From an uncultured archaeon (lineage in GTDB: Archaea > Aenigmatarchaeota > Aenigmatarchaeia > Aenigmatarchaeales > Aenigmatarchaeaceae), in assembly GCA_964347265.1 (NCBI GenBank), contig CAYFXV010000004.1, positions 1-49,808 on the forward strand: a DNA stretch of 49,808 bases. Reading direction: 5' to 3'. Position numbers and translations under genes: made by a program. The stretch's first letter is position 1. The number at the start of each line of letters is the position of its first letter. This document shows positions 26,324 through 28,163 of the stretch, piece after piece. The notes under the pieces were generated by a model. That model did no database searches. It was given only the letters and a program-made list of their open reading frames with translations, and was not told the origin of the DNA.

Positions 26324-26737
26324 ATGAAATATTCAATAAAATCCAAAGAAAAGGTCCGTGCTCTAAGTACAGTTTCAATATCGCACATACATGCGTCAAA
26401 AGTTTGTAAAGTTTTGAATAGAAAAAAATTTAGTGATGCAAAAAAGTTTTTAGAGAAACTGATTAACAAAGAAGTTTCAATTAATGGAAAACATTTTACT
26501 AAAACTTCTGAAGAGATTTTAAAAATTTTAAATCAGTTGGAAAGTAATGCGAGAACTTTGGATTTGGATCTGAATTCACTAAATCTTTTCATATCATCCC
26601 ATAAAGGAACTACTATGTATAGAGGTAGACGAGATAGGAGACATGGTATTAAATTAAAATCAGCTCACATACAAGCTGTTTTGAGTGATAAAGATGGCTT
26701 TGGAAAAAAAGTTCGTGAAAGAAGCAATAAGAAATAG
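26324..26737 (+). CDS. rpl22: 50S ribosomal protein L22 (uL22), divergent
   Basis: Position between rps19 and rps3; SISHIHASKVC, KTSEEILKIL, KSAHIQAVL. Confidence 0.82.
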   Translation: MKYSIKSKEKVRALSTVSISHIHASKVCKVLNRKKFSDAKKFLEKLINKEVSINGKHFTKTSEEILKILNQLESNARTLDLDLNSLNLFISSHKGTTMYRGRRDRRHGIKLKSAHIQAVLSDKDGFGKKVRERSNKK

Positions 26738-27404
26738 AGACGTAGAAGAATTTTTAGCAAATTCTTTTTCTAGAGCAGGCTATAGTCATTCGGAAATACA
26801 AAGAACGCCATTAAGCATAAGAATCACTGTTTATGCTCATAAACCAGGAATAATAATCGGAAGAGGTGGAAAAAATATAGATACTATGATACAATCTTTA
26901 AAAGAAAGATTTGGTTTTGAAAATCCACAATTAGATGTTCAAGAAATAAAAATTCCAGACTTAGACCCCTTTATTATTTCAAAATGGATAGTATCTGCAA
27001 TTGAAAGAGGAATAAATTATAAAAGGGTTGCACATTTGGCCTTAGAAAGAGTTATGGGTGCTGGTGCTGTTGGTGTTGCAATTAGAATATCTGGAAAAAT
27101 AGGAGGCGATATGGCAAGAACAGAAAAGTTCTCTGAAGGCTATTTGAAATATTCAGGAGAGCCTGCAGAAACAGATGTTAAGACAGCTTATGCTCAAGCA
27201 AATGTCAAGTTAGGAACAATAGGAGTTCAAGTTAGAATATTAATAGAACCACCTAAAGAATTAGAAGTCTTAAAAAAGATTGAAAAACTGTCAGATGTGG
27301 TTGAAGAAGAAAAGGTAGAAGAAGAAACAAAAGAAGAACCTAAAGAAGAAAGTGAAGAAAAGGAGGTAGAAGAGGTTGGCAATAATAAAGAAAAAACAGA
27401 TTAA
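26694..27404 (+). CDS. rps3: 30S ribosomal protein S3 (uS3)
   Basis: RAGYSHSEI, KPGIIIGRGG, IRISGKIGG, KLGTIGVQVRI; acidic tail. Confidence 0.97.
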   Translation: MALEKKFVKEAIRNRDVEEFLANSFSRAGYSHSEIQRTPLSIRITVYAHKPGIIIGRGGKNIDTMIQSLKERFGFENPQLDVQEIKIPDLDPFIISKWIVSAIERGINYKRVAHLALERVMGAGAVGVAIRISGKIGGDMARTEKFSEGYLKYSGEPAETDVKTAYAQANVKLGTIGVQVRILIEPPKELEVLKKIEKLSDVVEEEKVEEETKEEPKEESEEKEVEEVGNNKEKTD

Positions 27405-27585
27405 AGAAATGACTCATGTTGATCTTATCAATAGATTAAATGAACTGAGATTGGAATTAGTAAAAGAGAAAGGACAGATTGCTATTGGAGGAAGTCCTAC
27501 TAATCCTGGAAGGATTAAAGAAACTAAAAAAACAATAGCGAGAATTTTAACTGAACTAAAAAGGAGGGGAGAAAAAACTGCCTGA
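27376..27585 (+). CDS. rpl29: 50S ribosomal protein L29 (uL29)
   Basis: RLNELRLEL, NPGRIKETKKTIARILT. Confidence 0.95.
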   Translation: MAIIKKKQIKEMTHVDLINRLNELRLELVKEKGQIAIGGSPTNPGRIKETKKTIARILTELKRRGEKTA

Positions 27586-27883
27586 AGTATGTCCGATTTG
27601 TGGCTTGCCTAAAGAGCTTTGTATTTGTAAGATCATAGCAAAAGAGGAAGCAAAGATAAAAGTTTACCTTGTAAAAAGGACCTATGGAAAGTCAGTGACT
27701 ATAATAGACGGAATCGAAGAAAAAGCGAATCCTAAGGATTTGGCAAAAAAATTAAAAACAAAACTGGCATGTGGGGGAACTTACAAAAATGGCAAGATAG
27801 AACTTAGAGGCGATCATAGAAGAAAATTAAAAAAGCTCTTAATTGATGCAGGCTTTCCAGAAGAAAAAATTGAAGTTGAATAA
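27578..27883 (+). CDS. sui1: Translation initiation factor aIF1 (SUI1), probable CTG start
   Basis: (M)PEVCPICGLPKELCIC, KLKTKLACGGT, IELRGDHR; in-frame TAA at 27557; GGAGG SD at 27563. Confidence 0.9.
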   Translation: MPEVCPICGLPKELCICKIIAKEEAKIKVYLVKRTYGKSVTIIDGIEEKANPKDLAKKLKTKLACGGTYKNGKIELRGDHRRKLKKLLIDAGFPEEKIEVE

Positions 27884-27884
27884 A

Positions 27885-28163
27885 ATGATCACAGCAAAGA
27901 ACTTGATTAGACATGAATTAATAGGCTTGAAAGTAGAGATTGAAAAAAGCTTTAATAAATCCCATAATGGAATAAAAGGTTCAGTTGTTGATGAAACAAA
28001 AAACCTTTTAATAATAGAAACTGGGAAAAAGATAAAAAAAATTCAGAAAAGAGGAACAAGCTTCATATTTACAATTCCAAATGGCAAAAAAGTTAAGGTT
28101 GATGGAACAGTAATCACAAAGAGGCCCGAGGATAGAATAAAATTAAAGGTGAAAAAATGGTGA
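27885..28163 (+). CDS. rnp1: RNase P protein subunit Rnp1 (Pop4/Rpp29)
   Basis: NLIRHELIGLKV, GSVVDETKNLL, KVDGTVITKRPEDR. Confidence 0.95.
   Translation: MITAKNLIRHELIGLKVEIEKSFNKSHNGIKGSVVDETKNLLIIETGKKIKKIQKRGTSFIFTIPNGKKVKVDGTVITKRPEDRIKLKVKKW

Follow-up and report, generated by a model that had tools for sequence, protein, structure and literature searches.

Two fidelity factors of translation initiation are known to be autoregulated through the start of their own genes, bacterial IF3 via an AUU start codon and eukaryotic eIF1 via a poor start context (PMC4705826; PMC6237735). For eIF1, the work of Ivanov et al. (2010), as it is cited in PMC4705826 and PMC6237735, describes an AUG in poor Kozak context and autoregulation by the level of eIF1. 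Streptomyces sigR is reported to have a GTC start that is repressed by IF3 (PMC5472188). 30S binding and discrimination against non-AUG codons are also known for the archaeal factor aIF1 of S. solfataricus and P. abyssi (PMC4705826; PMC6237735), and with S. solfataricus aIF1 the 30S complex rejects an AUU mRNA (PMC4705826; PMC6237735).

Here we analyse the aIF1 gene in a stretch of 49,808 nt (contig CAYFXV010000004.1 of assembly GCA_964347265.1, forward strand) from an uncultured archaeon of the Aenigmatarchaeota, order Aenigmatarchaeales. This whole stretch is called the window in the following. A first-pass annotation had proposed that the gene starts at CUG, and that such a start may allow autoregulation by start codon stringency. 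Archaeal initiation takes GUG and UUG readily, and to our knowledge AUG, GUG and UUG are the only starts that are generally accepted in archaea. A full-text literature search, of incomplete coverage, found no published description of an aIF1 gene in archaea that lacks a canonical start.

Results

The aIF1 Gene of the Window and Its Start Region

The host genome comprises 825 kb in 39 contigs, is about 91% complete and has a GC content of 30%. Genes for L22, S3, L29, SUI1/aIF1, Rpp29, S17, L14 and L24 follow each other in the window, as in an archaeal ribosomal-protein operon. S3 (26685–27404) has a GTG start and a long acidic, lysine-rich C-terminal tail (EEEKVEEETKEEPKEESEEKEVEE...). The L29 gene (27376–27585, forward strand; Pfam PF00831, E 1.5e-15) has a TTG start that falls within the end of S3. 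Its TGA stop (27583–27585) overlaps the aIF1 start region (CTGCCTGA), and the overlap of L29 and aIF1 amounts to 8 nt. Rpp29, a protein component of RNase P (27885–28163, forward strand; Pfam PF01868, E 7.7e-25), has an ATG start one base past the aIF1 stop and completes the conserved order L29-aIF1-Rpp29-S17-L14. Canonical starts other than ATG are common in this operon among the relatives, TTG or GTG being present in 13 of 30 L29 genes.

Read from the proposed near-cognate start codon CUG (CTG at 27578–27580), the aIF1 coding sequence (27578–27883, forward strand) has 101 codons and a TAA stop at 27881–27883. The frame reads TAA(27557) AAA GGA GGG GAG AAA AAA CTG(27578) CCT GAA GTA TGT CCG ATT TGT GGC TTG(27605) CCT. 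The in-frame TAA at 27557–27559 (forward strand) closes the frame upstream, and no ATG, GTG or TTG lies in the aIF1 frame of the window sequence between this stop and the TTG at 27605–27607. The description given in the first-pass annotation, an in-frame TAA followed by GGAGG at 27563–27567 and no ATG, GTG or TTG ahead of the CTG, thus holds in the sequence.

The TTG at 27605–27607 is the first canonical start in the aIF1 frame and the one picked by the gene caller. It encodes Leu10 within the N-terminal zinc knuckle C5-x2-C8-G-L-P-x3-C15-x-C17 (27590–27628, forward strand), which in the window protein is C5-P-I-C8-G-L10-P-K-E-L-C15-I-C17. A start at this codon would, as had been pointed out before, cut the cysteine motif: Cys5 and Cys8 are lost and the product has 92 aa. 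The residues C, C, G, L, P, C and C of the knuckle are without variation in an alignment of 26 relatives (A1), and the same motif is found in aIF1 of M. jannaschii.

The protein read from CTG was matched by Pfam PF01253 (SUI1; E 9.5e-20, 71.3 bits against a cut-off of 25.5) and by NCBIfam NF002096 (137 bits against a cut-off of 98), with profile positions 2–101 of 102 covered in the latter case. Residues 1–100 aligned to residues 1–101 of M. jannaschii aIF1 (PDB 4MO0) with an E value of 3.6e-33, which places the CTG codon opposite Met1. The N-terminus of the window protein, lPEVCPICGLPKELCIC (l standing for CTG), compares to MPEICPRCGLPKELCVC in M. jannaschii. A SUI1 score above the curated cut-off, the archaeal zinc knuckle, the position between L29 and Rpp29 and the single copy together mark the gene as aIF1. 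It is the one SUI1 gene in the window's genome, and SUI1 is single copy in each of the tested genomes with CTG. For the window protein, 30S binding and discrimination against codons other than AUG are assumed by orthology.

The first-pass annotation had also remarked on RGDHR in place of QGDHR, the motif of most archaea. This is correct (27806–27820, forward strand), and is unrelated to the CTG start, since CTG also occurs together with QGDH in other families and in Hadarchaeota. The change from Q to R is limited to part of family f1 (genera g1, g4, g6 and g11). The neighbouring D and Q/H positions presumably correspond to those changed in the classical yeast sui1 mutations D83G and Q84P, and the substitution could still affect stringency.

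Reliability of the CTG Codon

Positions 27578–27580 showed no alternative letter in assembler contigs from three public metagenome runs, and the ATG at 27578 that would have contradicted a CUG start was not seen. One of the three runs belongs to a different study, with strain variants that are 90–99% alike. The same public contigs do differ at 27570 (GAG/GTG) and at 27581 (CCT/TCT). With the exchange of A and T at 27570, an in-frame GTG inside the Shine-Dalgarno (SD) sequence appears or disappears between strains, while the CTG is fixed.

Since the contigs of the public runs agree on CTG, and since CTG is kept in 24 further species of the order, an assembly error can be ruled out. An artefact in the wider sense, either a sequencing or assembly error at an original ATG or a decaying pseudogene, is a negligible explanation, in favour of which only the oddity of the codon can be cited. 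Against it stand the independent contigs of three runs and the presence of CTG in the 24 other species as well as in 32 Hadarchaeota (see below), and the aIF1 gene is intact, single-copy and highly conserved.

Shine-Dalgarno Sequence and Initiator tRNA

The 3′ end of L29 contains the SD sequence of aIF1 (AGGAGGGG, 27562–27569, forward strand). Its AGGAGG (27562–27567) can pair with the 16S rRNA 3′ end ...GGAUCACCUCCU, which was located in contig C2 of the same genome; the 3′ end of this 16S rRNA, ...GGATCACCTCCTTAA, is complementary to the AGGAGG. The spacing between the GGAGG core and the CTG is 10 nt.

For the comparison of loci, the SD distance was measured between the start codon and position 1 of the SD consensus GGAGGTGA, and SD runs of at least 4 nt were counted. 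At CTG loci the SD distance was 13–15 nt with a mode of 15, and an SD run was present in 56 of 57. The ATA and ATC loci had an SD distance of 14 nt and an SD run in all seven cases. The distance was looser at ATG loci (8–23 nt), where an SD run was found in 70 of 90. Nearly every weak start codon is thus accompanied by a strong SD at an optimal distance. A regulatory hairpin was not found around the aIF1 start, and this region folds worse than shuffled sequence (z +1.59).

The initiator tRNA gene lies outside the window (contig C2, about 59222–59315, minus strand) and has the sequence AGCGGGA...GGGCTCATAACCC...TCCCGCTACCA. Its anticodon is a normal CAU, A1:U72 and the three G-C pairs are present, and the D-loop region contains an insertion of about 17–20 nt. 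Due to this insertion ARAGORN reports no tRNA-Met and mis-calls the initiator as Thr(tgt) with an intron. An unusual initiator tRNA as the basis of the CUG start was considered and ruled out, because a motif search yielded this canonical CAU initiator.

Start Codons in the Order and the Phylum

A survey of aIF1 start codons by alignment of N-termini had been suggested in the first-pass annotation, and in it near-cognate starts were clearly enriched, with CTG in the order of the window and in about half of the Hadarchaeota species, and AUA or AUC in two families. Within the order, the position three to four codons ahead of the first cysteine was surveyed in 40 aIF1-bearing genomes. CTG was present in 25 of these, including all five genomes of the window's genus and members of families f1, f3, f4, f5, f7 and f8. 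ATA was found in four genomes, namely all of family f2, where it follows an in-frame TGA. The remaining genomes had ATG (7), GTG (3) or TTG (1). When 371 genomes of the phylum were searched with a sequence pattern, the CTG arrangement came up in 21, all from the window's order, and not once in the 329 others; in four further genomes of the order, outside these 21 matches, the CTG is one codon nearer to the cysteine.

For about 11 of the 25 CTG genes, neither the eight codons upstream nor the stretch between the CTG and the knuckle contains a canonical start in frame, and in two loci (L018, L020) a TAG is located immediately 5′ of the CTG. An in-frame GTG or TTG is nearby in 13 of the 25, mostly two to three codons upstream and inside the SD (GGGGTGA, AAGGTGA). 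In the window and in locus L003 this upstream GTG is GAG, and the CTG is kept.

In two families the only possible start is neither CTG nor a canonical codon. It is AUA in f2 (L016, L019, L028, L042; TGA AAA GAA ATA GAA RTN Cys) and AUC in f9 (L027, L032; TAA ATC GCT AAC Cys), with the SD 14 nt upstream in both. In another genome of the same class (G058, locus L054), aIF1 lacks the zinc knuckle and has MVEIDPKTGLPKELGVWES instead of CxxCGLPxxLCxC.

The first base of the start flips among C, A, G and T within the order (25 CTG versus 7 ATG, 3 GTG and 1 TTG), which shows that CUG is not obligatory. CUG could be merely tolerated here, the site being strongly driven by its SD and coupled to upstream translation.

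Constraint on the Codon and Specificity for aIF1

Codon use was compared in 25 CTG loci of 27–56% GC. For the invariant Leu of G-L-P the codon was TTG in 12 loci, CTT in 7, TTA in 3 and CTG in 2, and for the Leu of E-L-C it was CTT in 15, CTC in 4 and CTG in 3. In the gene body of aIF1, CTG makes up 28% of the Leu codons of the CTG loci. At the start position, CTT, CTC, CTA and TTA were never found across this range of GC content. All states seen there (CTG, ATG, GTG, TTG, ATA and ATC) are at most one base away from AUG, which is the signature of a start codon and not of leucine. The constraint bears on the codon and not on the amino acid alone. The synonymous variation at Leu10 (TTG, CTT, TTA, CTG) among the relatives, on the other hand, indicates that the TTG at 27605 is not kept as a start.

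The N-termini of L22, S3, L29, Rpp29, S17, L14 and L24 were projected in 30 of the aIF1 loci. None of about 190 instances of these seven neighbour genes had a CTG start; all had ATG, GTG or TTG at or beside the projected start. In the whole genome of the window, 7 of 229 CTGs (3.1%) were preceded by an SD, compared to 9.9% for ATG and a background of 3–5%, and by this SD enrichment no general use of CTG starts was seen. Four CTGs in the genome have an SD, lie upstream of the first canonical start and open a reading frame of at least 100 codons. Apart from aIF1 these fall into tRNA- or rRNA-like sequence or apparent antisense reading frames, leaving aIF1 as the only credible candidate. The odd start is a property of aIF1 and not a genome-wide habit.

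Hadarchaeota and Other Archaea

When 80 aIF1 loci from across the archaea were sampled, most starts were ATG, and CTG came to light in Hadarchaeota. There, 32 of 66 species have the L29 stop, one codon, CTG and then CxxCGLP (e.g., G413:C11:62777–62814), and 65 of the 66 species have one aIF1 each. The layout is GGAGGTG-N2-TGA/TAA-NNN-CTG, and the L29 stop ends 3 nt ahead of the CTG in 31 of 31 well-resolved loci. Tandem stops, TGA TAG, are located directly 5′ of the CTG in one genome. A few Hadarchaeota (L071, L077, L115) have ATG instead of CTG.

A first DNA pattern for a global search was too degenerate and gave mostly chance bacterial matches among the matches listed, so that a longer pattern was substituted. 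Over all species representatives this pattern gave 69 matches, all of them archaeal. Matches in Methanomassiliicoccales/Thermoplasmata read CTG ATG GCN (L-M-A-V-C), with the ATG as the start, and were excluded. About 20 Aenigmatarchaeota, 33 loci of the Hadarchaeota type, one Nitrososphaeria genome and one unclassified archaeon were left, and the latter two have CTG without any canonical option. In the matches from Micrarchaeota and in one from Thermoplasmatota the start is ambiguous.

Methanomethylicia-like genomes (L067, L072, L083) share a conserved TTG start (AAC TTG AGT GAG ATH Cys), and aIF1 of two Heimdallarchaeota (L085, L093) starts with GTG. Weak starts of the canonical kind thus seem to be favoured for aIF1 as well.

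A tree of aIF1 places at least two origins of CTG on well-supported branches; the 12 origins obtained by parsimony are a figure at the upper end. This tree is built on 98 columns of aIF1 only, is poorly resolved and misplaces the window's sequence, and was used for the minimum count of origins alone. The sequences indicate that the CTG start arose independently in Hadarchaeota and in the Aenigmatarchaeota order.

Coupling to L29

The stop of L29 lies in or directly beside the aIF1 start in most loci, whether these are of the ATG or the CTG type. Offsets of the L29 stop in CTG loci of Aenigmatarchaeota were −4, −5, −12, −14, −17, −27, +5 and +8, in varied frames, and in family f3 (L015, L017, L022) it lies 87–333 nt upstream of the aIF1 start. 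The same coupling exists at loci of the ATG type and therefore does not account for which codon is used. Pure termination-reinitiation explains neither the selection at the codon level, nor the f3 loci, nor the coupled neighbour genes that are free of CTG.

A programmed frameshift or readthrough fusion of L29 and aIF1 was rejected, as neither the frame relation nor a slippery context is constant. For Hadarchaeota, a +1 frameshift after initiation at an ATG in another frame (ATGA overlap) was likewise rejected because of variants with a TAA stop that lack this ATG.

Discussion

The alignment to Met1 of PDB 4MO0, the placement of the SD and the conservation at the codon level all support the first-pass proposal that aIF1 starts at CUG. 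Judged from these sequence comparisons, the CUG at 27578 is very probably the initiation codon of aIF1, and this is the only reading that fits all of the evidence. The start is conserved and non-optimal and the odd codon is specific for one gene, as would be expected for a fidelity factor that is autoregulated through a suboptimal start. We infer that the CUG is decoded by Met-tRNAi and that the level of aIF1 controls its use. In such a scheme the strong, optimally spaced SD at the 3′ end of L29 would position the 30S subunit at the CUG, which the standard CAU initiator tRNA would decode with a mismatch at the first position. As aIF1 is expected to destabilise initiation complexes on non-AUG codons, high levels would suppress initiation on its own mRNA, and low levels would relieve this suppression. 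The resulting negative feedback loop would follow the same logic as that of infC with its AUU start and of eIF1 with its poor context. If aIF1 discriminates against CUG, feedback follows automatically, and repeated, gene-specific near-cognate starts in aIF1 are what the feedback model predicts. Feedback also agrees with the pattern of starts and with the known biochemistry of aIF1. We favour feedback through aIF1's own discrimination against near-cognate starts, with a probability of roughly 0.6.

The main rival takes the CUG as the start as well, and sees in it a static attenuator or a nearly neutral, tolerated state: the strong SD and the coupling to L29 would make any NUG workable, and no feedback would arise. 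As an attenuator, the weak codon would lower the output of aIF1 relative to the highly translated ribosomal-protein genes of the same operon. Such a state is in line with an L29 stop at or near the aIF1 start in most loci of both codon types and with the nearly universal SD at CTG loci, and the frequent switching among all four NTG codons at this position within one order speaks in its favour. It does not account for the seven neighbour genes, which are similarly coupled and never drift to CTG, or for the persistence of CTG in an order and half a phylum, after independent origins, in the gene of the start codon proofreader only. Moreover, any discrimination of aIF1 against CUG would bring feedback with it. 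For these reasons we consider a static state unlikely, and feedback the better explanation of the CUG.

Two further readings deny that the CUG is a start, and both are highly improbable. Translation might begin at a canonical codon, either the TTG at 27605, which is the first in frame and would give the 92 aa protein that lacks Cys5 and Cys8, or a GTG that relatives have three codons upstream of the CTG; 13 of the 25 CTG relatives do have an in-frame GTG or TTG just upstream at which initiation could in principle occur. The stretch PEVCPICG 5′ of the TTG is, however, conserved as protein with invariant cysteines, and the Leu10 codon is not kept as TTG. Neither the window nor L003 has the upstream GTG, at least nine other species lack it too, an intervening stop makes it impossible in L018, L020 and 32 Hadarchaeota, and strains switch between GAG and GTG at 27570 with the CTG unchanged. 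Where it exists, it lies within the SD (GGTGA), too near to work with that SD. Alternatively, aIF1 might have no start of its own and be made as an extension of L29 by frameshifting, by transcriptional slippage on the A6 run at 27572–27577, or by readthrough. The A6 run does precede the CTG of the window, where the genes overlap, and in Hadarchaeota L29 and aIF1 are in one frame with only the stop and one codon between them. Yet the frame relations vary across the CTG loci of Aenigmatarchaeota, with the L29 stop as far upstream as it is in f3, and the A run is missing from many of these loci. The stop in Hadarchaeota is TGA or TAA, and in one case the tandem TGA TAG. An extension of L29 would also leave the conservation of the CTG codon and the fixed SD spacing unexplained.

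A start at CUG has practical consequences. It predicts an N-terminal peptide of the form MPEVCPICGLPK, LPEVCPICGLPK or PEVCPICGLPK. Gene callers restricted to ATG, GTG and TTG truncate the essential aIF1, here to the TTG at 27605, and yield a model without two zinc ligands; the same truncation is likely in dozens of species of Aenigmatarchaeota and Hadarchaeota. The gene also provides a natural CUG mRNA for testing the discrimination by aIF1 in initiation complexes of P. abyssi or S. solfataricus. The comparative evidence for CUG, AUA and AUC as natural archaeal start codons is strong.

The feedback proposed here would be a new archaeal variant of the theme known from the autoregulation of IF3 and eIF1. 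If it is true, self-control of a fidelity factor through a weak start reaches the third domain, by convergence on a protein that is unrelated in the case of IF3 and orthologous in the case of eIF1. In a still wider view, all domains would make their proofreader from a poor start (AUU for IF3, a poor-context AUG for eIF1, and CUG, AUA or AUC for aIF1), as a homeostatic control of stringency. In archaea this would have occurred repeatedly, in one order of Aenigmatarchaeota, in the AUA and AUC families, in half of the Hadarchaeota and sporadically in Nitrososphaeria, with an optimal, strong SD inside L29 and with CUG as a genuine natural start. We see the chances of this wider view as evenly balanced.

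The aIF1 proteins of M. jannaschii, P. abyssi and S. solfataricus (PDB 4MO0, 5JB3) align over the full length to the window protein. They share the N-terminus (M)PE(I/V)CPxCGLPKELC(V/I)C with its zinc knuckle, the region of the SUI1 fold and the place in the operon after L29. The studied model genes for aIF1 start with ATG (e.g., the Methanocaldococcus locus L123), whereas the gene of the window has CTG.

Streptomyces sigR is likewise reported to have a very weak non-canonical start that makes expression sensitive to a fidelity factor (PMC5472188), as we propose for aIF1. This bacterial gene is a target of the factor, while aIF1 is the factor's own gene.

The closest parallel in bacteria is infC, which also encodes a factor that rejects non-canonical starts, and which is under translational autorepression from an AUU (or AUC/AUA) start (PMC4705826). 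As in infC, a conserved non-canonical start stands behind an SD in an operon with ribosomal-protein genes, and surplus factor would be expected to turn off its own initiation. aIF1 is unrelated to IF3 in fold and descent, and its codon is mostly CUG, with the mismatch at the first position; AUA and AUC occur in sister families. In contrast to the near-universal start of infC, the CUG of aIF1 is confined to one order and half of the Hadarchaeota.

Eukaryotic eIF1 (SUI1) belongs to the orthologous family, and here too the site at which synthesis of a fidelity factor begins is deliberately weak, as proposed for aIF1. In eIF1 the AUG is kept and its context is weakened, in a system that relies on scanning, whereas the aIF1 described here uses a near-cognate codon that is placed by an SD on a polycistronic mRNA.
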